Below, piece by piece: positions 1 through 10,816 of a stretch of 10,816 bases of DNA. Each line of letters begins with the position of its first letter. Within the stretch, counting starts at the first letter, position 1. Under the pieces are notes generated by a model, which did no database searches, had not been told where the DNA came from, and worked only from the letters and a program-made list of their open reading frames with translations. The DNA is from Candidatus Nanohalobium sp. (lineage in GTDB: Archaea > Nanohalarchaeota > Nanosalinia > Nanosalinales > Nanosalinaceae), in contig JBDGSM010000030.1 in NCBI GenBank assembly GCA_042217545.1, positions 1-10,816 of the forward strand, read 5' to 3'. Made by a program: the position numbers and the translations under genes.

Positions 1-211
1 ACTTGCAAGACGAAACCATTCGTCCCACAGAGGTTTCCAGTGTCCACAAGCGTAATTTCAGCCCTGCCCGTGCTTACAAAAACCATTATAGCTCGGAAAT
101 TTTTTATTTCTGGCGATTCATCACACTACCTTATCCTTCGGATGAGGAAGGCGACTTCTCGCCAAGGAGTTAAAATGAAGATGGAGAAATGAGGGTGTTG
201 TGAGGCCTTTT

Positions 212-943
212 TTACTGTACTCCGAGTGCTTTTCTGAATAGGTAGGATAGTGGCATCATGAGTATCAGGTAGAATCCCAGCCAGTTGACTGCGTTTCCGA
301 CTAAGGGATAGTTTCCTGGTAACGGTATGAATACTGCGTTGATGCTGAGCTTGGCGTCCGAGTTGCTTCCGCTAGGGGATTTCATGAAGTTCATGACTTC
401 CCAGGTTATTCCGTGTGTCTTGAAGTTCTGGTGGAGCTTGGCCTGCTGTCCGTCGAACTTGATAACTGGTTCGGATTTGTTCACCACCTGTATCTGTGAT
501 ACCTGGCCTGCGTAGCTTATGTTTCCTGTGAATGTGTGGTTGCCTGTGCTGTGGAGGCCTACGGTAGGTGAGTAGGTGGATCCGAGCCATGGGAAGATGA
601 ATGCGACGAATATCATTGTGGCTATCATCGGTTTGAAGTTCAGCATCATGAACTTCTGGTTTAGTTTCAGGGTCTTCGACATGTGTTTCGAGGCCTTGTC
701 ACTTTCGTCGTTCTGCCTTGCTTCCTTCATCTTGTCCTGGTGGTGTTCCAGTTTCTCCTTGATTTCGTCTGCTCTGTCTGTGTCCAGCAGCCACCAGTAG
801 ATCAGGGAAAATATTCCTGCGAGGGCTGCGGAGAAGAATCCGAGCGATACGTATGGCCCCATTGCGAGCAGCGGCTGGAAAAACGAGTCGTAAAAAGTGT
901 ACAGCGGGGTTAGTAGTGCTGCGAACTGTATGCCGAATACCAT
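212..943 (-). CDS. DUF106 / EMC3-TMCO1-like (Oxa1 superfamily) membrane protein insertase
   Basis: 243 aa: N-terminal TM, coiled coil (DRADEIKEKLEHHQDKMKEARQ), second TM after NFKPMIATM, C-terminal WLGFYLIL...RKALG. This family typically lies downstream of secY in archaea. Confidence 0.88.
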   Translation of the reverse strand: MVFGIQFAALLTPLYTFYDSFFQPLLAMGPYVSLGFFSAALAGIFSLIYWWLLDTDRADEIKEKLEHHQDKMKEARQNDESDKASKHMSKTLKLNQKFMMLNFKPMIATMIFVAFIFPWLGSTYSPTVGLHSTGNHTFTGNISYAGQVSQIQVVNKSEPVIKFDGQQAKLHQNFKTHGITWEVMNFMKSPSGSNSDAKLSINAVFIPLPGNYPLVGNAVNWLGFYLILMMPLSYLFRKALGVQ

Positions 944-967
944 ATAGAAGGAACTGCTTTACGAATA

Positions 968-975
968 CTTTTAAA
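968..975 (-). promoter_or_regulatory. TATA box (TTTAAAAG) for a probably leaderless DUF106 transcript
   Basis: Minus-strand TTTAAAAG ends 24 nt before the ATG at 943, and there is no SD upstream of that ATG. This spacing is typical of haloarchaeal leaderless mRNAs. Confidence 0.65.
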
Positions 976-1007
976 CTGAGGCCTTCACCGTGGATTTTTT
1001 GTGACTT

Positions 1008-1037
1008 AGAGGTAAAGAGAGGGGGAGGGGATATGTG
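1008..1037 (-). terminator. Putative pyrimidine-rich terminator downstream of secY
   Basis: The mRNA strand reads CACATATCCCCTCCCCCTCTCTTTACCTCT starting 16 nt after the secY stop and ends before the DUF106 promoter. Confidence 0.4.
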
Positions 1038-1053
1038 TTGCTGGCACGTTTAT

Positions 1054-2463
1054 TTACTGGATGAAGTCCTTGAGAGCTGGGTGGAGTTCCTCCATGTGTT
1101 TCTGTGCCAGTTCCTCGTATAGCTGGTAGAGGATCATGACTGTGAGCAGGATTCCTGTTCCCCCTCCTGCTGCCTGTGTCATGTTGGCGAGTGATGCGAG
1201 GAGGCCGATTGTGAGGCCTGATAGGACTGTTAGGCCTGGGATGTATCGGTTGAGGACCTTCTTGATTATTCTCTTGTCTTTTCTGAATCCTGGTACTTTC
1301 ATTCCTGTGTTCTGTATCTGTTGTGCGACGCTGTCGGCGTCCTGTCCGCTGGTTTTTACCCAGAAGATTGAGAACATGACTGATCCGAAGGCGTATACTG
1401 ATAGGTAGAACAGTACGTGGAACAGGCTTCCTGTTCCGAAGAGCTGGATATTTCCGAAACCTGATGTTAGGAGTGTTGTTACGAATCCTGTTGGTGCTGT
1501 GAGCCATGCTACGAGTCCTGTGCTTGCTCTTCCCTGGCTCATGCATCCGAGGATTGTGCATCCGTTCTTTCCTGCGAGGACTGTTGCCACGATCTGTAGG
1601 TTGGATATGAGTGCTGCTACGAGGATGACCGGCATGTTGCTTGTGTATAGGAATTTGAGAGGCCATTTTTGTCCGAATCCTCGGGCGTTTCCGAAGGTCA
1701 GCGGTATTTCGACTTTCATGGATTGCAGGTATACTACTGCTGCGAAGACTGCGATTGTTGAGATTATTGGTAGAATTGCTACTAGTTCGTAGCTCTGGAT
1801 GAATCTGAAGATTGCTCCTGCTGGTTTTCCTCCCTGGATCATCCAGTAGAGTTTTGGATGAGCTGTTGTTGTGAGTGGGGAGATGGCTCTTACGAATATT
1901 GCTTTTGATACTCCTGATGCGATGAATAGGCCTGTTCCTGATCCGAATCCCCATTTCTGGACTAGGTCGTCCATGAGTATGACCATTATTCCTCCCAGTG
2001 CGATCTGTGCTACGAGGATGCCGAATATGAATGGATCTCCGATTACGTTTCCGAATGTTCCGGATGCTACGTATCCGAAGGCTTCTACTACGGATAGTGT
2101 CCATGCTAGTATTTTCTGTGCGGACTGGAATTTCTGTTTTCCTTCCTGGGTGTTGGTGTCCCATGGAAGTAGTTCTGATCCTACCATCATCTGAAGGACG
2201 ATGGATGCTGTTACTATTGGTCCGATTCCGAGCGTGATTATGGATCCGATCTGTGCTCCTAGAAGTGTCTGGAATGTCCTTAGTTGCTGGAGGGCGTTTT
2301 GAACTGACTGTGCGCTTCCTCCGTACAGATCTATGGATCCGAGTGTGAAGTAAAGTACGAGAACAATACCGGTCCATGTGAGCATCTCTTTTAGTGACTG
2401 TTCTTTTTCCGGTTCTTCTATACCGGGAAGATAGGATGCTATCTGGACCAGTGTCGAAGCCAT
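1054..2463 (-). CDS. secY: Preprotein translocase subunit SecY
   Basis: 469 aa multi-TM protein with GSIITLGIGPIVTASIVLQ, KWGFGSGTGLFIA, PLKFLYTSNMPVIL, PGFR, RYIP and GTGILLTV motifs; follows rpl15. Confidence 0.99.
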   Translation of the reverse strand: MASTLVQIASYLPGIEEPEKEQSLKEMLTWTGIVLVLYFTLGSIDLYGGSAQSVQNALQQLRTFQTLLGAQIGSIITLGIGPIVTASIVLQMMVGSELLPWDTNTQEGKQKFQSAQKILAWTLSVVEAFGYVASGTFGNVIGDPFIFGILVAQIALGGIMVILMDDLVQKWGFGSGTGLFIASGVSKAIFVRAISPLTTTAHPKLYWMIQGGKPAGAIFRFIQSYELVAILPIISTIAVFAAVVYLQSMKVEIPLTFGNARGFGQKWPLKFLYTSNMPVILVAALISNLQIVATVLAGKNGCTILGCMSQGRASTGLVAWLTAPTGFVTTLLTSGFGNIQLFGTGSLFHVLFYLSVYAFGSVMFSIFWVKTSGQDADSVAQQIQNTGMKVPGFRKDKRIIKKVLNRYIPGLTVLSGLTIGLLASLANMTQAAGGGTGILLTVMILYQLYEELAQKHMEELHPALKDFIQ

Positions 2464-2466
2464 TGA

Positions 2467-2898
2467 TTATTCTTCCTCTACTACTGCTTCTCCGTCTGAT
2501 TCTTCTATTTTCCTTTGCGCAGAGTCGGAGAAACTTTCCGCGTGGATCTCGATCTCTTTGGTGAGTTTTCCTGTACCCAGTACTTTTTCGTATCCAAGGT
2601 CGCTGAGGTCGACGATGAAACGTCCGTCTTTTTCCTCTGCAAGGCCTGCTTCGACCAGTTCTTCGATTCTCTGGTCGATGTCGCGTAGGTTGAGGCCATT
2701 CTGCTCGTTTTCTTCGAAGGGTGTGAACCCGTGTTCTCCCATTTCTTTGAGGCCTTCCTTTGTCATCCTGTTGTGGCTTGCTTTCTTTCCCGAGCCTGCT
2801 TTTCCTCTGCCACCGCGGCTTCCTGCTCCTCTGTTCTTCTTGGAGCTTCCGTATCCGTGGCTTCCTGACTTGTTCTTCTTGGATCTTCTCTTGGTCAT
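2467..2898 (-). CDS. rpl15: 50S ribosomal protein uL15
   Basis: HGYG..KKNRGAGSRGGRGKAG, KVLGTG and FSDSAQRKIE motifs. Start moved from the GTG at 2907 to the ATG at 2898 because AGGTGA (SD) precedes it. Confidence 0.97.
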   Translation of the reverse strand: MTKRRSKKNKSGSHGYGSSKKNRGAGSRGGRGKAGSGKKASHNRMTKEGLKEMGEHGFTPFEENEQNGLNLRDIDQRIEELVEAGLAEEKDGRFIVDLSDLGYEKVLGTGKLTKEIEIHAESFSDSAQRKIEESDGEAVVEEE

Positions 2899-2910
2899 GA
2901 AACTCACCTG

Positions 2911-3258
2911 TTATACCATTCTTTTGATCAGGTCGTTCATTTCGTCTCTTTCTCCGAGGCTTCCGCCCTGTCCGACCTGTTGACGTGTGTTTTTGTATCC
3001 TCTGGTTGGAGGACTGAGTTTTACTGTGTCTCCTGTATCAAGGTTTCTACCCGAGGCTTCTTCAAGCTTTTCTACAGTTTCATCGCTTATTTCTCCGAAT
3101 GTTATGTAGTCTTTTGCGACGGATAGCTGTCCTCTGATAGCATCGTTGTCTTCAAGGAGTACAAGCTGGTTTCTCTTGTTGAGTCCGAGGTGCTGGAGGG
3201 AGTGTTTCGCCTTTTTTCTTGCGTCTACTGTTCCTCTGATCTGTACTGCGGCGATCAT
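2911..3258 (-). CDS. rpl30: 50S ribosomal protein uL30 (shortened archaeal form)
   Basis: AAVQIRG, DYITFGE, LSPPTRGY, GGSLGER and LIKRM motifs; lies between rps5 and rpl15. Confidence 0.95.
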   Translation of the reverse strand: MIAAVQIRGTVDARKKAKHSLQHLGLNKRNQLVLLEDNDAIRGQLSVAKDYITFGEISDETVEKLEEASGRNLDTGDTVKLSPPTRGYKNTRQQVGQGGSLGERDEMNDLIKRMV

Positions 3259-3926
3259 TATTCGATGTCACCTCTCTTGTATTCGTTGATTTTCTTCAGG
3301 GCGTTGAATGTTGCTCTGATCAGGTTTTCTCTTGTACGTGTTTTTCCTCTTGCCTGTACCCATACGTCCTGGATTCCTCCTAGTTCGAGGATCTTTTTGA
3401 CTTCGTCGCTTGCTGCGAGGCCTGTTCCTTTAGGTGCTGGCTTGAGTGTTACTGTTACCGAACCTGATTTACCGGTTACTTCGAGTGGGACTGTGTGGTC
3501 TGTTCCGCATCCGCATTCCCAGCTTCCGCATCCTTTGCTGATTTCTATCAGGTTGAGCTTTGCTTTCCTGTTTGCGTCGTCGATCGCTGCACGGGTGTCA
3601 TCTGATTCTCCCATGCCGAGGCCTATGACGTTCCTGCGGTTTCCGAGGACGGTCATGGCTTTGCTGTTGTATCTTGCCCCTGATTTATGCATTCTTGCTG
3701 TTCTCTTGGAGACTGTTCTTCTCTTGCCTCCTCCTTTTCCTGGTGTTCCTCCGATGAGGATTACTTCTTCGTCCAGGTCTGTGAGCTGGTCGACGATCTC
3801 CGGCTCCATGATTTTTTTCTGTGAGTTAAGTGCTTCTTCGATGCTGGAGATCTGTCCCTGTGCTACTTTTCTTCCTAGTTCTGTCTTTGGTTTCCAGATC
3901 TCTTCTTCCTGTTCCTGTTCGCTCAC
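3258..3926 (-). CDS. rps5: 30S ribosomal protein uS5
   Basis: WKPKTELGRKV, GCGSWECGCG, HTVP..VTGKSGSV, PAPKGTGL and TFNAL motifs. GTG start overlaps the rpl18 stop. Confidence 0.98.
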   Translation of the reverse strand: MSEQEQEEEIWKPKTELGRKVAQGQISSIEEALNSQKKIMEPEIVDQLTDLDEEVILIGGTPGKGGGKRRTVSKRTARMHKSGARYNSKAMTVLGNRRNVIGLGMGESDDTRAAIDDANRKAKLNLIEISKGCGSWECGCGTDHTVPLEVTGKSGSVTVTLKPAPKGTGLAASDEVKKILELGGIQDVWVQARGKTRTRENLIRATFNALKKINEYKRGDIE

Positions 3927-4429
3927 TTGAAATCACCGATTTCTTCTTTTGTTTCTTCAAAGTTTTCTACTATGTCTGTGTCTTTCATTTCTGCGATGTG
4001 TTCTCCTTTGATTCTTTCTTCCTGTGGGAAGACTTCTTCTCCTGCTGGAACGTTGAGGCCTGCATCGTTCATTCCTTTGACTGCTGCGAAGACTCTGCCT
4101 CCTGCTTTCTTTTCTCTGAGGCCTAGGTCCAGGATTGCTTCTTCTTCGTCTGCGCGTTTGCCTGTTAGGTATCCTGTTAGGTATGCGGCAGGGAGGTTTC
4201 CTGTGTTGTGTTCCCATCCGTATTCTTCGAGGTCTTTGCTGCTTGTCTGTGCCTTGTTCTCGTCGCCTTCAGGCTTGAACTGTGAGATGTGGGCCTTAGT
4301 ATGTTTGTTGCTTGTTCTGATTACTACTCGTGGCTTTCCTGATTTGACAAGTTTCTCTCTCTGCTGGTAATCAGTTTTCTGTTCTCTTCTTCTCCTGTGC
4401 GGTACTTTGTAGTTTGATGTGTCTGCCAT
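3923..4429 (-). CDS. rpl18: 50S ribosomal protein uL18
   Basis: RRRREQKTDY, KPRVVIRTSNKH, GNLPAAYLTGYL, ILDLGL and GLNVP motifs. Confidence 0.98.
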   Translation of the reverse strand: MADTSNYKVPHRRRREQKTDYQQREKLVKSGKPRVVIRTSNKHTKAHISQFKPEGDENKAQTSSKDLEEYGWEHNTGNLPAAYLTGYLTGKRADEEEAILDLGLREKKAGGRVFAAVKGMNDAGLNVPAGEEVFPQEERIKGEHIAEMKDTDIVENFEETKEEIGDFK

Positions 4430-4435
4430 TGGTGA

Positions 4436-4879
4436 TCACTCGAGTTTGTTCTCGACGTGGTTTTCGAGGTGTTTTGTGTCTCTGAAGAATCCTCCTTTGG
4501 ACATGTCGTAGAGCTTGCGGTACTGTTCCTGTGTGATTTCTTCGTTGTCTCGCATCTCTTTGAGTCTTTTCCTGATCGCTCTGATCTTTTCCATCCATTG
4601 CTGTTTGGAGGATTTTCTTGCGGTTTTTCTTCCTTCCCTGCTTCCCTGGCCTTTCTGACGGCCTTTCTGTTTCTGTTTTTTGTTCTTCCTGCTTCTGCCT
4701 TTGGAGGTTCCTTTCTGTTTCTGTTTCTGGATGGCTCCGGATTCTACAAGGTTTCTGATGTCCTGCCTGGTGATTGCTTCTTCTACTCTTTCCATCTGTT
4801 CTGGGTCGATCCAGACACGGTTCTTTCCGATGTTCATTACTTCTGCTGCCATCCTCTTCTGACTCTTAAGATCCGTCAT
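4436..4879 (-). CDS. rpl19e: 50S ribosomal protein eL19
   Basis: LKSQKRMAAEV, RVWIDP, AITRQDIRNL, WMEKIRAIR and YRKLYDMSKGGFF motifs. Confidence 0.98.
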   Translation of the reverse strand: MTDLKSQKRMAAEVMNIGKNRVWIDPEQMERVEEAITRQDIRNLVESGAIQKQKQKGTSKGRSRKNKKQKQKGRQKGQGSREGRKTARKSSKQQWMEKIRAIRKRLKEMRDNEEITQEQYRKLYDMSKGGFFRDTKHLENHVENKLE

Positions 4880-5226
4880 TCTTCGTCACCTCTGTTCAGT
4901 ACGTGAATATCGTTTTCATCTGCTTCTTCGATAATATCTGCTCGCTTTCTTCCGCCGACTGTTGATCCGATCCTTGCTGCTTCTGTCTCGGGATCGATCT
5001 CTTCCAGATCGTTGGTGTTGTGTACAAGCACTTCTTCGTATCCTGAAGGGTGGAGGCCTCTGATCTGTTTCGGCGTCCTGTCTCCTACGGTAGGCATAGG
5101 CTTTGCTGATTTCAGCTTCAGTCTTACCTTGCTGTGTCCTCCGACAGGCTTTCTCCATGACGTGTTCTTCAGCTTGCTGTGCTTGTGCTTCTGCTGTCTC
5201 TTGAACTCTCTTTTCTTCTTATTCAT
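4876..5226 (-). CDS. rpl32e: 50S ribosomal protein eL32
   Basis: FKRQ, SWRKPVGGHSKVR, RGLHPSGYEEVLVHN and RIGSTVGGRKR motifs. Confidence 0.98.
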   Translation of the reverse strand: MNKKKREFKRQQKHKHSKLKNTSWRKPVGGHSKVRLKLKSAKPMPTVGDRTPKQIRGLHPSGYEEVLVHNTNDLEEIDPETEAARIGSTVGGRKRADIIEEADENDIHVLNRGDEE

Positions 5227-5752
5227 TTGTATCTACCTCTGTGATGTAGACGCCGTCCTGGAATGTTCTTGGGTCTCTGTCGCCTTTCTTGCAGAGCTGT
5301 TCGATCCTTGCTGCGGTCTGGCTTACTTTGTCCTTGTCCGCTCCTGTCAGTGTTAGATCTTCGCCGTCTACTTTGACCGTTACTCCTTCAAGGATGTCTG
5401 CGGTTCGTGGGTTTCTTTCGCCCATGAAGTTTTCGATGACTATCTGGTTGTTTTCCTGTTTGATTGTCATCGGGAAGTGTGCGTATACTCCCTTCATCTT
5501 GTATACGTGCGGTTCCTGAAGGCCTTCGACCAGGTTTCTTACGTGGCTCTGGTACGTGCCCAGGATGCTTGTAATATTTCTCTTTGTGGATCTTGTGGAG
5601 AATGTTACTCCGTCGTCCTCTACTTCTACGTCGATCATTGCGTGCTCCAGTTTCTTCGAGACTTCCTCTCCGTTGCCCTCGACTGTGAGAACTCCGTCTT
5701 CGTATGAGGCCTCGAAGTCTTCTGGGATTTCTGCTGTGATTTCTTCTGTCAT
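5219..5752 (-). CDS. rpl6: 50S ribosomal protein uL6
   Basis: VYAHFPM, IENFMGER, VSQTAARIEQ and RDPRTFQDGVYI motifs. Confidence 0.98.
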   Translation of the reverse strand: MTEEITAEIPEDFEASYEDGVLTVEGNGEEVSKKLEHAMIDVEVEDDGVTFSTRSTKRNITSILGTYQSHVRNLVEGLQEPHVYKMKGVYAHFPMTIKQENNQIVIENFMGERNPRTADILEGVTVKVDGEDLTLTGADKDKVSQTAARIEQLCKKGDRDPRTFQDGVYITEVDTNE

Positions 5753-5764
5753 TTTTTGATCACT

Positions 5765-6154
5765 TCAGTAGACGTATCCGAGGAGTTTTCCTCCGACGTC
5801 TTCTTCTCTTGCTTTTGAATGGGTCATTACTCCTTTGCTGGTTGTTACCAGGATTTCTCCGAATCCCTGTGCTGGGAGGTATCTCTTTGCCCATTTCTCG
5901 TACTCATCGTTCTGGACCGAGAAGTTTGGCTTTACAGGCTGGCATTCGTTGATCTGTGGCTTGACTTCTACCTTGAACTTGTCTCCCTGTCCGTCTTCTA
6001 CGAGTTCGAATACTCCTATGTATCCGAGCTGCTGTAGCTCGATCAGTACGTTCTTGACAAGGTTGCTCGTAGGCGAGATCATCGCGTGAGTCTTTCCCTG
6101 TCTTGCTGCATTGTTGATTGAACTTAGTGCGTCGCTCAGTGTATCATGTTGCAT
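5765..6154 (-). CDS. rps8: 30S ribosomal protein uS8
   Basis: DTLSDALSSINNA, RYLPAQGFG, VTTSKGVMTH and GGKLLGYVY motifs. Confidence 0.98.
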   Translation of the reverse strand: MQHDTLSDALSSINNAARQGKTHAMISPTSNLVKNVLIELQQLGYIGVFELVEDGQGDKFKVEVKPQINECQPVKPNFSVQNDEYEKWAKRYLPAQGFGEILVTTSKGVMTHSKAREEDVGGKLLGYVY

Positions 6155-6168
6155 TTACTTTGTCACCT

Positions 6169-6393
6169 CTATTTCAGTTGCTCGAAGCCTAGTTCTTCTG
6201 CGATTTCTCGGAAGCACTGCCTGCAGTAGTCAAGGCCGTACTTGGAGATTACTCCTCTGCCTGTTCTGCCGCATCTTCTGCACTCTTTCTTTTCCTTGCC
6301 GAAGTCTCTTTCCTTTGGTGCGTTGTGCTTTTCGAATTTCTCTCTTTTTCCTTTTTTGTGCTTGATCTGGTCAAGTACTGCTTCGTATGACAT
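6169..6393 (-). CDS. rps14: 30S ribosomal protein uS14 (zinc-binding, N-terminally extended)
   Basis: CRRCG...[13 protein letters not shown]...GF motif; lies between rpl5 and rps8. Confidence 0.97.
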
Positions 6394-6396
6394 TTT

Positions 6397-6906
6397 TTAC
6401 TTCACCTCTGCTCCGAGCTCGTTTTCGACGAACTCCTTTGCCTCTTCATCGGAGACCTTGTGATCTTTTCCGATCTTTGAAGGCTTGTGGTCCCTCTTCT
6501 TGACCCTGTAGCCAGGTCTTTCAAGGACGACTGTGACTTCGAAACCTTTCATGCCGATGTCTGCGTCGTAGTCAACACCGGGAACATCGATGTATTCGGA
6601 GATTCCGAAGGAAAAGTTTCCGTTGCTATCGAATGCGTCAGCGCTGATCTGGTTGTCTGCCGCGGGCAGGACTTTTTCCAGAAGGTCTCTGGCTTTTTCG
6701 CCTCTGAGGGTTACTGAAGCTCCTACGTTGAGGCCTTCTCTTAGTCCGAAGCTTTTTGCTTCTTCTTTGGACTGTACTCTGATAGGTTCCTGGCCTGTAA
6801 GTTTCTCTACCAGTTTGAAGGCCTTTTCTACGTCGTCTCCTACCTGTCCTGATGAGATGTTGACTGATACCTTGCTGATCTCGATCTGTTTCATTTCCTG
6901 GCTCAT
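6397..6906 (-). CDS. rpl5: 50S ribosomal protein uL5
   Basis: LTGQEP, FGLREG, VTLRG, FDSNGNFSFGISEYID, YDADIG and RPGYRV motifs. Confidence 0.98.
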   Translation of the reverse strand: MSQEMKQIEISKVSVNISSGQVGDDVEKAFKLVEKLTGQEPIRVQSKEEAKSFGLREGLNVGASVTLRGEKARDLLEKVLPAADNQISADAFDSNGNFSFGISEYIDVPGVDYDADIGMKGFEVTVVLERPGYRVKKRDHKPSKIGKDHKVSDEEAKEFVENELGAEVK

Positions 6907-6908
6907 TC

Positions 6909-6954
6909 GAAAACACCTCTGGTGTTTCCTGGATCACGAAAATCTTCGATTTTC
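6909..6954. repeat. Intergenic double-hairpin element (rps4e-rpl5 spacer)
   Basis: AAACACC-TCT-GGTGTTT (6911-6927, contains the rpl5 SD GAGGTG on the minus strand) and GAAAATC-TTC-GATTTTC (6938-6954, overlaps the rps4e stop). Confidence 0.85.
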
Positions 6955-7615
6955 ATTGTTCGTCACCTAGTTCGATGTCTTTTACTGCTACAAGGTTTTC
7001 GAGCTGTGTTTCGAACTCGTATTCGCTTTCGACGTCTCCTGTGTCCTGGTCGAGGTTTCTTCTGTGGACTTCTTTGAGTTCTGCGACTTCTCCTGCGTGC
7101 TGTCCGGAGATTACAAGGACCTGTGCTCCTTCCTCTCTCTTGACTTCTTCTGCGTCGCCGTTGAGTAGAAGGCTGCTTCCTGTTTCGAAGCTTTCCTCTG
7201 TCCTGTAGTTGTCTCCGTTGTGAAGGTGGTAGACGAACTCTTCTCCTTCTGTTGCTTTCTCTTCGATCCTTGCGATCGTTTTTTCGGAGTCGTCTATTTC
7301 GACGAATCTGAGGTCGTCTCCTTCGATTATTACTCTGTAGGCCTCGTCTACTTCTTCGAGTGTTACTACGTCGAGTACGCCGATTCCTTCCTTGACGTCC
7401 CTGACTCTTTCGCCGTTTCTGAGTAGCTGGCCGTTTCTGATTATCTGTTTTGCTTCTTTTTCGCTTTCCGCGTATCCGGTTACGTCTCTCAGGAAGAGAA
7501 CTGCCGGGATAGCTGTTTCGCTGCTCCTGCTGCCTTTGATGCCTGAGACATAGCTGTAATGCTTTCTCTGGATCGGGTAGTGCTTTGGAGCAGAAAGTCT
7601 TTTCTGATGTGTCAT
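6953..7615 (-). CDS. rps4e: 30S ribosomal protein eS4
   Basis: HQKRLSAP, LFLRD..GYA, GIGVLDVV, LHNGDN and ISGQHAG motifs; lies between rpl24 and rpl5. Confidence 0.96.
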   Translation of the reverse strand: MTHQKRLSAPKHYPIQRKHYSYVSGIKGSRSSETAIPAVLFLRDVTGYAESEKEAKQIIRNGQLLRNGERVRDVKEGIGVLDVVTLEEVDEAYRVIIEGDDLRFVEIDDSEKTIARIEEKATEGEEFVYHLHNGDNYRTEESFETGSSLLLNGDAEEVKREEGAQVLVISGQHAGEVAELKEVHRRNLDQDTGDVESEYEFETQLENLVAVKDIELGDEQ

Positions 7616-8353
7616 CTAGTTGTCACCTTTCTCTTCTTCGTCTTCGGTTTTCTCGTCCGATTCGTCTTCTTCAGTTTCCTCTTCTTCTGATTCTTCAGAG
7701 TCGGATTCGTCTTCACTTTCTTCCTCTTCTTCAACTTCTTCGGAATCTGTTTCCTCTTCGGATCCTTCGAATTCTTCCTCGACTTCTTCTGTCTCTTCTT
7801 CAAGCTCTTCCATTTCTTCTTCCATCTCTTCAAGCTCTTCTTCGTCGATGTCCATGTCTTCCATGGACTGTCCTCCGCCCTGCATCTTCTGCATCATCTC
7901 GTTTGCTTCGTCTTCTTCTAGGGCTTCCTCGACTTCCTCGGAGTCGACCCGGATGTCGCTTGACTCGTCGATCTCGTATTTCTCTATCCTATCGTTTTTC
8001 TCAAGGTTCAAGGCCTGTGCCTGTAGGTTGGAAGGCCTGAAAGGTATTTCGCTTGTGGATCCATCCTGGCGTGTTACTTCGATGCCGTTGATGTAGACTT
8101 TTTCCTTCTGTCTGTCTATGTTTGAGACGATTCCTTCTGCGCCTTTCCTGTCTCCTCTCATTACTTTTACCCTATCTCCAAGGTTGAGGCTGATCGAACG
8201 TGCTCCGAGCTCTTCTCTTAGTGTCTCGGAAAGATTTACTGAGATAAGAGTATCTTTTACGTGCTGTGGAGCGTTTTCCCTGTATTTCCTCTGCTTCTGT
8301 GGGTTGGTGCTTGAGTTCCAGTCGTTGCTCCAGTTTTCAGTTGTATTTGACAT
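7616..8353 (-). CDS. rpl24: 50S ribosomal protein uL24 with ~120-aa acidic C-terminal extension
   Basis: SSTNPQKQRKY..NAP.H, KOW motif GDRVKVMRGDRKG and PFRPSNL, followed by an E/D/S-rich tail. Confidence 0.96.
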   Translation of the reverse strand: MSNTTENWSNDWNSSTNPQKQRKYRENAPQHVKDTLISVNLSETLREELGARSISLNLGDRVKVMRGDRKGAEGIVSNIDRQKEKVYINGIEVTRQDGSTSEIPFRPSNLQAQALNLEKNDRIEKYEIDESSDIRVDSEEVEEALEEDEANEMMQKMQGGGQSMEDMDIDEEELEEMEEEMEELEEETEEVEEEFEGSEEETDSEEVEEEEESEDESDSEESEEEETEEDESDEKTEDEEEKGDN

Positions 8354-8358
8354 TAGTT

Positions 8359-8452
8359 GAAAACACCTGCATGTTTTCGGCTATTCGAAACCCGTGGAGT
8401 TTCTCCTACCAAGAAAACTCCGTTTTCGCTATTCCGAAAATCTGCGATTTTC
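8359..8452. repeat. Intergenic multi-hairpin element (rpl14-rpl24 spacer)
   Basis: GAAAACA-CCTGCA-TGTTTTC (8359-8378, contains the rpl24 SD), imperfect GGAGTTTCT...AGAAAACTCC (8396-8421) and GAAAATC-TGC-GATTTTC (8436-8452). Confidence 0.85.
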
Positions 8453-8456
8453 ATCT

Positions 8457-8858
8457 TTAGACCACCTGTGATGCGATTTTTCCGATTGGGCTGAAGCGCT
8501 GGACTACTTCCTTTGCGATAGGCCCACGGGTTACTGATCCTTTTGGTAGAAGGTTGTCTTCTTCGACGAGGACTGCTGCGTTGTCCTCGAACTTTACTCT
8601 GAGGCCTTCAGGCCTCTGGTATTCTTTTGCCTGTCTTACGACAACTGCGTCGAAGACCTGGTGTTTGACTTCCTGGTCTCCCTTCAGTACTTTTACTTTG
8701 ACGATGTCTCCGACTCCTGCGGAGTTTCTCCTGCTTCTTCGTCCTTTCTGGATTCTTACTCCGATGATCTTCAGCTTCTTTGCTCCGGAATTGTCTGCGC
8801 ATGTAAGTTCTGCGCCGATGTCCAGGGTCCTTGTAATATTTGCTCCCAGTGGCTTCAT
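8457..8858 (-). CDS. rpl14: 50S ribosomal protein uL14
   Basis: CADNSGAK, AGVGD, AVVVRQ, VKFEDNAAVLV and GPIAKEV motifs. Confidence 0.99.
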   Translation of the reverse strand: MKPLGANITRTLDIGAELTCADNSGAKKLKIIGVRIQKGRRSRRNSAGVGDIVKVKVLKGDQEVKHQVFDAVVVRQAKEYQRPEGLRVKFEDNAAVLVEEDNLLPKGSVTRGPIAKEVVQRFSPIGKIASQVV

Positions 8859-8859
8859 C

Positions 8860-9198
8860 TTACTCTTCCTCCTCTTGTCCGTTGTTTCTGATCTGTACGA
8901 TTACAGCGGATTTTGTCTTGGAGATAGGTCTTGACTCGACTATGCCTACTTTGTCGCCTTCTTCGACTTCAAGGCATTCAGGTACGTGCGCCGTGATCTT
9001 TGTGTTCCTCCTCTCCTTTCTCTCGTATTTAGGGACGCTTTCTGCTGTTTCCCATCTTACTGTTGCGGATTTCTGCATCTTGGTGGACTGCACTTCTCCC
9101 GTGAAAGTACTTCCTCTAACGGAGAGATCTCCGTGGAACGGGCAGTGCTTATCCTCGCATTCTTGTTCTGGTTCTTTTACGTCAAGTCCGATTCCCAC
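8860..9198 (-). CDS. rps17: 30S ribosomal protein uS17
   Basis: CEDKHCPFHGDLSVRG, KMQKSATV, PKYERKE and RPISKTKS motifs. Likely start is the GTG at 9198, preceded by SD AGGTGA, rather than the TTG at 9216. Confidence 0.97.
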   Translation of the reverse strand: MGIGLDVKEPEQECEDKHCPFHGDLSVRGSTFTGEVQSTKMQKSATVRWETAESVPKYERKERRNTKITAHVPECLEVEEGDKVGIVESRPISKTKSAVIVQIRNNGQEEEE

Positions 9199-9224
9199 TG
9201 ATTGTTCACCTTTCAAACTGTCGT

Positions 9225-9404
9225 AAACCTGAAAGATCTGTGAACTTTTTAAACCGTCTTACTTCAGGCAAAAAGAGAGCAATACGCTATAAGCGATTTT
9301 CTCATGCTCCTCCTGAAGTATCGCCTCCGACCTGAAACCCGGACAACAGGTTTCAAGGCCTTCACCGACTTCAAGTGGTCGAAAGGCTCACGCCTTTCAG
9401 GCTT
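9225..9404. other. Palindrome-dense intergenic element (structured RNA leader or IS200/IS605-derived miniature element)
   Basis: Inverted repeats TACTTCAGG/CCTGAAGTA (9260-9320), TGAAACC/GGTTTCA (9333-9355), GCCTCCGACC/GGTCGAAAGGC (9323-9387) and GAAAGGC-TCAC-GCCTTTC (9381-9398), plus an outer 10/11 inverted repeat at 9225-9235 and 9394-9404. Confidence 0.55.
9246..9253 (-). promoter_or_regulatory. TATA box (TTTAAAAA) for the rps17-secY transcript
   Basis: Minus strand reads AAGACGGTTTAAAAAG about 47 nt upstream of the rps17 GTG. A promoter is plausible here because an opposite-strand gene interrupts the operon upstream. Confidence 0.6.
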
Positions 9405-9428
9405 GTAGTCATGAACGAGAAGCTAAAC

Positions 9429-9436
9429 TTTAAAAG
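9429..9436 (+). promoter_or_regulatory. TATA box (TTTAAAAG) upstream of the plus-strand gene
   Basis: GAAGCTAAAC-TTTAAAAG about 57 nt upstream of the ATG at 9494, which has SD-like AGGTGG before it. Confidence 0.5.
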
Positions 9437-9493
9437 GGTGGTTAAGTTCGGGAGGCTTTTTTTGAGTTTTGAGTGGGAAGGTGGTTTCCACTG

Positions 9494-9954
9494 ATGTTAG
9501 AGGGGACAGGCCTGGCGGTGCATGGTTATGGGAGGTATGTGGATGAGGAGGCTTTCAGGGATGCAGGTGTCGAGCTTTCGGGTGAGATGGCTGTTTATGG
9601 TGTAAAGGCCTCGAACTTCTCGGATGATTTGATTGGTGGTTTTTACGAGGATACTTTTTCAGATATTCCGGGAGGGAGGAACGGGCTGTGGGTTCCCGTT
9701 TTCTTGAGGATCTGGAGGGGCCTTTCTACGTTTTTGGTGGTCTTGTTAGCGAGTGTGTGCCTGGTGCGGTCTACTCCGTCCTGAGTTCGGGTGAGGAGGC
9801 CTATGTCGTAGAAGATGCTTCGTTTGAGAAGCTCGGTGAGGATGAGTTCTTGAGTTACAGTGAGATGAGGGGTTCTGATGAGGATTATTCTGACGTGTTT
9901 CAGGATCTGTACATGCTTGGTGTTGATACTGTGAAGCTGGAAGATATCTTCTAG
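9494..9954 (+). pseudogene. Frameshifted gene, divergent isochorismatase/cysteine-hydrolase-like protein (~153 aa if rejoined)
   Basis: ORF 9494-9784 is acidic up to EDTFSDIPG. The overlapping frame (open 9628-9954) is acidic from REERAVGSRFLEDLEG and contains FGGLVSECVPGAVYSVLSSGEEAYVVEDAS, resembling the G..t..CV......G..v.vv.DA motif. The one-base shift falls near CCGGGAGGGAGG (9668-9679). Confidence 0.55.
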
Positions 9955-9959
9955 AAATT

Positions 9960-9986
9960 GTAAAGTAAGAGAAAAGTGGATATGTG
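9960..9986 (-). terminator. Putative pyrimidine-rich terminator downstream of SUI1
   Basis: The mRNA strand reads CACATATCCACTTTTCTCTTACTTTAC in the gap between convergent genes. Confidence 0.45.
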
Positions 9987-10009
9987 AGGGAATTTACGGA
10001 TTAAAGGCC

Positions 10010-10321
10010 CTAGGCTTCTACTTCGATGTTGCTGCGTTCGAAGCCTTCGTCGACCAGGATGTCTACGATTCTCCGGGTGTGGTCTCCCTGGAGTTCGATG
10101 TGGCCGTCTTTGGCGGTTCCGCCACACGCTAACTTGGATTTGAGTGTGGAGGCCAGGTCGTCGAGGTCTACTGAGTCTTCGAGGCCTTCGACGACGGTCA
10201 TCTCTTTGTTGTAGCTCCTTGTGTCGATTTTGACTGTGATTTTCTGATCCTCGCGTGCGATGCTGTCGCAGACGCAGAGGTCTTCAGGCATTCCGCATTT
10301 CGGACATGTAGCTTCTGGCAT
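10010..10321 (-). CDS. sui1: Translation initiation factor SUI1 / aIF1
   Basis: CPKCGMPEDLCVC zinc knuckle and LKSKLACGGTAK.G.IELQGDH motif. Confidence 0.97.
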   Translation of the reverse strand: MPEATCPKCGMPEDLCVCDSIAREDQKITVKIDTRSYNKEMTVVEGLEDSVDLDDLASTLKSKLACGGTAKDGHIELQGDHTRRIVDILVDEGFERSNIEVEA

Positions 10322-10323
10322 TC

Positions 10324-10375
10324 AAAGATCACCTTTGCTGTGATCTTTTGTGTGTCCAGAAATTCTTCGAATTTC
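10324..10375. repeat. Intergenic double-hairpin element (rpl29-SUI1 spacer)
   Basis: AAAGATCAC-CTTTGCT-GTGATCTTT (10324-10348, contains the SUI1 SD AGGTGATC) and GAAATTC-TTC-GAATTTC (10359-10375). Confidence 0.85.
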
Positions 10376-10388
10376 GTTCATTGATTAT

Positions 10389-10592
10389 CTAATCGGAGTT
10401 TTGTTCGTTGAGAACTGTTTTGATCCTTGCGATGGTTTTCTTCATCTCTTTGATCCGTCCTGGGTTGTCGGTAAATCCTCCGACTTCGATCTGTCCTCTT
10501 TCCTGGACCAGTTCCTTCTGAAGGTCGGTCATTCGTTCCTTGAGTTCGGATCTGTCCATGTTTCGGATCTCGTCGGCGGTTAGAATAGCCAC
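10389..10592 (-). CDS. rpl29: 50S ribosomal protein uL29
   Basis: MAILTADEIRNM...NPGRIKEMKKTIARIKTV; GTG start. Confidence 0.97.
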   Translation of the reverse strand: MAILTADEIRNMDRSELKERMTDLQKELVQERGQIEVGGFTDNPGRIKEMKKTIARIKTVLNEQNSD

Positions 10593-10618
10593 TGTTTAAT
10601 CACTCTCGTTGGAAATTT

Positions 10619-10816
10619 TTATTCTTTCTGGCGCTCTAGCCAGTCAGTGAATGTTGTCCGGTTTTTATTGTCTTCTTCTGCTTCCAGGAGTTCATCGAAG
10701 TCAGGATTCTCAAGATCAGCGATCATATCCTTCGCATCGCTGATAGTTCCCGAAACGATATCGTCATAATCGACTTCGTCGTCAGAATCTTCGGCTGAGG
10801 CCTCTTCAGTTTCTTC
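10619..10816 (-). CDS. 3' end of upstream gene, probably uS3 (acidic tail plus small helical domain); partial
   Basis: Open frame from the window edge: EETEEASAEDSDDEVDYDDIVSGTISDAKDMIADLENPDFDELLEAEEDNKNRTTFTDWLERQKE*. The uS3 assignment rests only on its position upstream of rpl29. Confidence 0.65.
   Translation of the reverse strand, partial: EETEEASAEDSDDEVDYDDIVSGTISDAKDMIADLENPDFDELLEAEEDNKNRTTFTDWLERQKE

Follow-up and report, generated by a model that had tools for sequence, protein, structure and literature searches.

AGGCCT as a highly iterated palindrome of nanohaloarchaea and candidate recognition site of a DNA-binding protein

AGGCCT sites in a ribosomal-protein operon

The 10,816-nt stretch of DNA analysed here (the window, G000:C24:1-10816) belongs to the 1.03 Mb genome, G000, of a salt-lake archaeon, which is assembled in 82 contigs and is 92% complete, and the element in question is the hexamer palindrome AGGCCT. 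The window carries a ribosomal-protein operon with a SecY-like gene at its end, names that come from recognition of the sequences with no profile scan. For one window protein, nanohaloarchaea are the closest relatives with a name, SG9 standing at 84%, so that the nanohaloarchaeal setting proposed in an earlier examination of the same letters (the sequence-only reading) was right. Between 9473 and 9954 the minus-strand operon is broken by two overlapping plus-strand open reading frames (ORFs; 9473-9784 and 9688-9954), possibly a broken or spurious gene.

Exact AGGCCT occurs 29 times in the window, compared with a mean of 1.99 (standard deviation 1.28, maximum 6) in 200 dinucleotide-preserving shuffles, an excess of about 15-fold. 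All 29 coordinates listed by the sequence-only reading were found to be exact, its expectation of 2.6 sites corresponding to an 11-fold excess, and AGGCCT indeed makes up 29 of the 46 GGCC tetramers of the window, with 14 of the remaining 17 one mismatch away. Fifteen sites are read in the codon phase nnA-GGC-CTn, all in minus-strand genes: 555-560 in ORF 212-943; 1214-1219, 1232-1237 and 1928-1933 in the SecY-like gene (1054-2463); 2642-2647 and 2750-2755 in gene 2467-2898; 3418-3423 and 3619-3624 in gene 3258-3926; 4056-4061 and 4119-4124 in gene 3923-4429; 5054-5059 in gene 4876-5226; 5520-5525 in gene 5219-5752; 6731-6736 in gene 6397-6906; 8602-8607 in gene 8457-8858; and 10182-10187 in gene 10010-10291. 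The phase nAG-GCC-Tnn is used at seven sites, six of them on the minus strand (691-696 in ORF 212-943, 5707-5712 in gene 5219-5752, 6819-6824 in gene 6397-6906, 7339-7344 in gene 6953-7615, 8011-8016 in gene 7616-8353, and 10798-10803 in gene 10619-11776 of the contig) and one, 9797-9802, in the weakly called plus-strand ORF 9757-9954. Two minus-strand sites are read as AGG-CCT, namely 8033-8038 in gene 7616-8353, where it encodes Arg-Pro, and 8610-8615 in gene 8457-8858, which lies 8 bp from the site at 8602, a spacing that is rare genome-wide. Three sites are in spacers: 203-208, directly beyond the stop of ORF 212-943; 979-984; and 9356-9361, the flanks of which are of the TTCA...TTCA type preferred by the genome. 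The last two, 9508-9513 and 9606-9611, are outside called genes or within the doubtful plus-strand ORF 9473-9784. Our own gene caller left that ORF uncalled and thus gave phases of 15/7/2 with five sites outside genes; once it is counted as a gene, both sites fall inside it and the phases become 16/8/2 with three intergenic sites, reproducing the earlier count.

Extent of the excess in the genome and among relatives

Genome G000 contains 3,699 copies of AGGCCT, or 3.6 per kb (about one per 280 bp), and AGGCCT is its top hexamer, with observed/expected (O/E) ratios of 15.1, 13.0 and 5.1 under order 0, order 1 and order 2 models, respectively. Every one of the 82 contigs carries it, at 1.3-5.9 per kb. 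The sequence-only reading had allowed that the excess might disappear under codon-preserving shuffles, or prove confined to the window and absent between genes; instead, the coding DNA (1,185 genes from our own caller) holds 3,143 sites compared with 547-625 in 10 synonymous-codon shuffles, about a 5-fold excess that is found separately in each codon frame at 4- to 6-fold, and the signal is strongest in spacers, with 505 sites against 22 expected (∼22-fold, or 16-fold under an order-2 spacer model). As a description, the label of a HIP1-like highly iterated palindrome (HIP) is therefore apt: the excess is extreme, spans all frames and extends to spacers.

Positions at which AGGCCT is synonymously possible are close to saturation, 3,116 of 4,547 (69%) being filled in G000 and 3,529 of 4,803 (73%) in G058, a second AGGCCT-rich genome, compared with 87 of 2,442 (3.6%) in the poor relative G046 and 109 of 1,695 (6.4%) in 600 kb of the poor relative G050. 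A codon model gives AGGCCT a weight of 32-fold (G000) and 56-fold (G058) over states at least two mismatches away, and of 0.6- and 0.8-fold in two poor genomes. The effect reaches the proteome. Across 526 orthologue triplets, with one poor genome (G046) as baseline, both rich genomes have more of the compatible dipeptides (RP, 264 and 276 vs 163; GL, 971 and 948 vs 731; AS, 615 and 721 vs 499), while the control dipeptides PR, LG, GI and GV stay level. From the most to the least conserved class of proteins, the excess of possible sites grows from 1.31- to 1.94-fold.

The trait is bimodal within the phylum. Twelve of 70 genomes are rich, with about 2-4.8 AGGCCT per kb (genome sizes rounded), comprising 3/3 genomes of genus g1, 4/5 of g3, 3/3 of g17 and 2/6 of g18; one genome, G023, is intermediate at about 0.95 per kb, and the other 57 are poor, at less than 0.7 per kb. 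No rich genome was seen among 101 from the phylum of a Nanoarchaeota locus, none lying above about 0.6 per kb. Relationships were drawn from EF-2 as a quick single-gene tree of 31 genomes, with 3 of the 30 queried giving no match and with no clade test. There, three poor g18 genomes (support 99) are nested among two rich ones (90), G023 is sister to the rich genome G024 (99), and the rich genera g1 and g17 are unresolved relative to the poor g15 and g20 (99); losses would be a simpler reading of this history than gains. SG9 shares 35 of 44 aligned AGGCCT sites at 82% identity, and co-filling of sites between genera has an odds ratio of 3.3, both values obtained with no matched control motifs and the latter with peptide class unstratified. 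AGGCCT is scarce in those stretches of G058 that are low in GC and resemble islands, and no alternate HIP was found in G046, in G050 or in 140 kb of G055. Among viruses, five contigs (L146, L194, L216, L205 and L192) carry dispersed AGGCCT at roughly 10- to 18-fold in 4-6 kb and encode non-acidic proteins, the pattern used in the search biasing these values upward; a scan of at least 120 viral loci otherwise gave tandem repeats and non-halophilic-looking phage genes, with nothing relevant.

Two other features of G000 were observed in passing. The tetramer CTAG is strongly avoided genome-wide (O/E 0.24), and an open frame of 8,315 codons at G000:C9:32557-57501 encodes a giant surface-type protein.

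Possible causes of the enrichment

The anatomy of the sites was compared in spacers, flanks and spacing. Among the nine one-mismatch classes in spacers, AGGCCC/GGGCCT is the sole one clearly raised (2.2- and 3.5-fold); the others, at 0.84-1.55, resemble those of poor genomes and none is drained, a graded profile that appears binding-site-like. An excess of AGGTCT in one codon phase was dropped as a lead because it is absent in spacers. Genus g17 tolerates all AGGCCN (1.9- to 3.3-fold, in 28 kb only). GGCC is under-represented outside an A...T or half-A/T context, the signal being AGGCCT itself rather than GGCC. Flank bias at spacer sites extends to +4 in both G000 and G058: A is avoided at +1 (0.10 and 0.09 vs 0.21-0.22) and preferred at +3/+4, and at +1 the two lineages differ, T being preferred in G000 and C in G058. 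The commonest contexts are TTSA-AGGCCT-TSAA-like in G000 and AG-AGGCCT-CT in G058. Neighbouring sites also interfere. When two possible sites lie 10-29 bp from each other, both are filled in 97 cases in G000 and 135 in G058, whereas permutation within peptide class gives 157±9 and 180±8, respectively, with 0 of 1,000 permutations as low; pairs 30-49 bp apart were depressed in G000 (150 vs 186) but not in G058, and between 50 and 199 bp filling was independent. Other inverted or direct 6-mer pairs showed no comparable short-range avoidance.

A symmetric core, graded tolerance at the outer bases, lineage-specific symmetric flanks and interference over 25-50 bp suggest a dimeric DNA-binding protein. 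The reading preferred here, with a probability of roughly one half, is that AGGCCT is the recognition site of such a candidate protein, probably dimeric and independent of methylation, and that the sites are maintained by selection for binding. It is supported by the contrast in codon-model weights between rich and poor genomes, by the finding that no methylase or Vsr gene tracks the trait, and by the presence of an NgoPII-family endonuclease next to a C5 methylase in two of the poorest genomes. Each new AGGCCT would be favoured individually, with a per-site advantage of about ln(32-56), or 3.5-4 scaled units; the protein would read the site with a footprint of some 25-50 bp, and the trait would decay after loss of the protein or of its use. 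Coating or organisation of the chromosome, or marking of self-DNA, is proposed as the most likely role. A chromosome-binding or uptake signal, which the sequence-only reading had offered as an alternative, is a candidate that fits better than its methylation ratchet.

Several observations weigh against selection for binding. Filling is independent beyond 50 bp, the sites show no 10.5-bp helical phasing, and there is no clear long period (in G058, Fourier power was 8.5 at 52 kb and 9.3 at 349 kb compared with an expected maximum of about 6.3, by a method unlike that of the HIP literature). The neighbour effect is partial (0.6-0.8), whereas a second site of no use should be lost almost completely, and it is difficult to name a function that would need about 3,700 individually selected sites and that close relatives can nevertheless do without. 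Nor has a responsible gene emerged. Subtraction yielded 81 genes that two rich genomes share and that G046 and part of G050 lack or match weakly; coverage was incomplete, extending to 600 kb of G050 (948 kb) and 20 kb of G053 (916 kb), and G046 is a flawed negative, since it carries a GGCC-family restriction system. Twelve of the 81 were profiled together with SWIM and NucS (for eight of these 14 candidates, in only 5 genomes each), and not one follows the trait.

The closest candidate, an Mre11/SbcD-like nuclease of an Mre11/Rad50-like pair, is present in 8 of 70 genomes, four of them rich (two of g18 and two of g1), but in 0/5 genomes of g3 and not in G052, and it occurs in two poor genomes. 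It is paired with a second, short Rad50-like ATPase (655 aa) at G000:C12:128-3116 and L037:3727-6712 (G058), and the distribution of the pair is patchy. The small gene of the PolB2 operon (35/70 genomes), a DtxR-like protein (22/70), a phosphoesterase (34/50) and the SWIM protein (18/50) likewise do not follow the trait, and the same is true of an HD hydrolase, a 253-aa unknown, a ribbon-helix-helix protein, DnaG, YgjP, a 134-aa unknown, an HTH protein and a class I methyltransferase. Of 50 genomes, 48 carry NucS, and its alignment has no column that splits 11 rich from 12 poor genomes. It is more diverged (70-77% to G058) in several lineages where the motif is missing or weakened (L305-L307 from G055, G059 and G060; L303 from G023), beyond its divergence in many other genera, with no diagnostic residue. 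The operon at G000:C37:1863-5787, which we take to be PolB2-like, and its counterpart at L036:6224-9333 encode a family B polymerase, a ∼90-aa gene and a ∼245-aa gene. Up to six short histone-fold-like proteins were picked out in G000 by eye and regular expression, with no profile scan (C21:26787, C21:8179, C56:3104, C23:39931, C52:23434 and C17:17312), and have counterparts in G058 and G046. A RadA-like protein (G000:C21:6090-7040) is 85% identical between the two rich genomes but only 66-69% identical to that of G046, which is a wide difference for so conserved a protein.

The most serious competitor to selection for binding, although we consider it unlikely, is a conversion drive without a methylase, whereby mismatch repair or gene conversion would be skewed by a site-specific factor in favour of the AGGCCT strand of any heteroduplex, and the sites themselves need no function. 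Independent filling beyond 50 bp is predicted equally well by a blind drive; near-saturation, the steeper rise of compatible peptides in the least conserved proteins and the apparently quick decay in nested poor lineages also agree with it, and a bound factor could in addition shield a neighbouring site. The undrained one-mismatch precursors and the distribution and alignment of NucS speak against it, as does the lack of a MutS or MutL motif in four genomes searched by regular expression only. Sequence alone cannot separate selection for binding from such a drive.

An uptake or exchange signal, by which AGGCCT-bearing DNA would be preferentially taken up or recombined and the motif would rise by molecular drive, appears improbable. 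Known uptake sequences are non-palindromic 9- to 10-mers, the interference described above acts over 25-50 bp and not on the scale of fragments, and no DprA motif was found in four genomes (by regular expression only; ComEC was not searched for). Some properties do agree: according to the available text of PMC2817400, uptake sequences roughly double the peptides they encode and favour poorly conserved genes, both of which are matched here, and are missing from genes without homologs; that island-like stretches of G058 are site-poor is a further point in favour. HIP1, too, has been proposed as an uptake signal in the part of PMC13756078 that is available.

The sequence-only reading had offered a methylation-directed repair or mutational ratchet as one option and suggested looking for a GGCC/AGGCCT methyltransferase and a Vsr-like nuclease. 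No C5 methylase (PF00145) was found in G000, within the 92% of the genome that is represented, and Vsr is present in 0 of 50 family genomes. C5 methylases occur in 1 of 12 rich genomes, in 0 of 4 single-contig rich genomes and in 16 of 57 poor genomes (two below the cut-off). A full-length PF01555 match was obtained in 1 of 12 rich genomes; the match in G000, which adjoins an RNase Z-like gene, is presumably a Trm11-type tRNA methylase, as judged by reading with no scan. Six-frame motif searches, the sole method applied to the D12 and MT-A70 families, found no DNA methylase common to G000 and G058, and G000 has nothing that corresponds to the type I and type IIG-like methylases of G058. In spacers, AGACCT/AGGTCT, which deamination would produce, is not depleted, nor is it clearly raised (1.31 and 0.95). 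With no shared methylase, no Vsr and no drained precursors, the ratchet is not supported. Where a GGCC restriction system is present, AGGCCT is avoided rather than enriched: an NgoPII-family (GGCC) endonuclease lies beside a C5 methylase in G046 (L106:491-2386) and G063 (G063:C1:267321-269175), two of the poorest genomes for AGGCCT (one positive among five further genomes tested), and GGCC is avoided in G046.

A ratchet of the kind proposed for cyanobacterial HIPs could nevertheless be rescued if the methylase has changed beyond recognition, has been lost recently or comes from the haloarchaeal host by way of cell contact, for which the incompleteness of G000 leaves some room, but such a rescue seems a long shot. 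In the available text of PMC4390886, alternate HIPs accompany cognate methylases and a ratchet model is put forward; the accessible part of PMC12128166 reports AGGCCT methylases, with AGGCCT methylation in a bacterium; and exchange of methylases between nanohaloarchaeon and host is proposed in that of PMC11001535. One nanohaloarchaeal methylome shows GDGCHC only, and 'GGCC' does not appear in the main texts concerned (PMC10266531, PMC11001535).

Finally, the notion that the excess follows from the usage of codons or amino acids, or from faulty assembly, can be discarded: G000 makes frequent use of the codons AGG (Arg), CCT (Pro) and GGC (Gly), but the excess over synonymous shuffles in all three frames, the very low filling in poor relatives and, decisively, the excess in spacers refute a usage effect. 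Contigs from two sequencing runs, which may be those behind the assembly, match the window with 0-1 differences in each piece listed (the runs comprise contigs only, X3 and X4 being small shares of related organisms), and since these contigs agree and the excess recurs in 12 assemblies, it is not an artefact of assembly.

Comparison with known systems

The uptake sequences of Haemophilus and Neisseria are longer than AGGCCT and non-palindromic. They share with it copy numbers in the thousands, a reshaped proteome, an effect that is strongest in poorly conserved genes and scarcity in foreign DNA, as far as the available text of PMC2817400 describes them. Dcm/Vsr repair and the restriction-modification systems that act on GGCC or AGGCCT (NgoPII family; StuI-type) involve the same target chemistry; unlike them, the rich genomes have neither Vsr nor a shared methylase, and the NgoPII-family system is found in two poor relatives.

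HIP1 proper (GCGATCGC) is absent as an enriched motif, its core CGATCG having an O/E of 0.8-1.0 in G000. A precedent for the core AGGCCT does exist in CAGGCCTG of Synechococcus sp. PCC 6312, a HIP1-poor genome, with an O/E of 14.7 in the available text of PMC5861425; it differs in being known there from one cyanobacterium, at 0.37 per kb, as an octamer with C/G flanks, whereas T (G000) or C (G058) follows the core here. No publication on an AGGCCT excess in archaea was found by a search that lay largely outside subscription papers and supplements.

The excess of AGGCCT is real, strong and patchy among lineages. The reason for the abundance of HIP1 in cyanobacterial genomes is still an open question, and the leading model of its origin depends on a methylase; AGGCCT is a palindrome just as extreme but archaeal, present about once per 280 bp in the 1-Mb genome of a symbiont, with no shared methylase gene found, and as a DNA-level signal it measurably reshapes the proteome. 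Since the trait flips within single genera, matched rich and poor relatives are available for finding the gene and for separating selection from drive. Selection for binding, stated in full, would have one protein read a 6-bp palindrome at about 4,000 sites, rewriting synonymous codons and amino acids without methylation, gained or lost between sister species and incompatible with GGCC restriction. That fuller account is put forward tentatively; if true, AGGCCT would be the first HIP of the archaea and one that works without a methylase, and rich and poor relatives would provide a natural on/off series with which to address the HIP1 question, now 30 years old. HIP1 and the alternate HIPs of cyanobacteria are likewise extreme, frame-independent short palindromes with a patchy distribution among relatives, tolerated deviations at the outer bases and an unresolved function, as the available texts of PMC4390886 and PMC5861425 describe them, the latter reporting HIP1 as conserved and periodic in a text that does not contain 'archae'. 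AGGCCT is archaeal and of another sequence, is present at 3.6 per kb compared with about 0.5-2.5 per kb for HIPs, and shows short-range exclusion with no clear 10-90 kb period. Taken together, these comparisons indicate that AGGCCT works like a HIP but departs from HIPs in that no cognate methylase was found for it.

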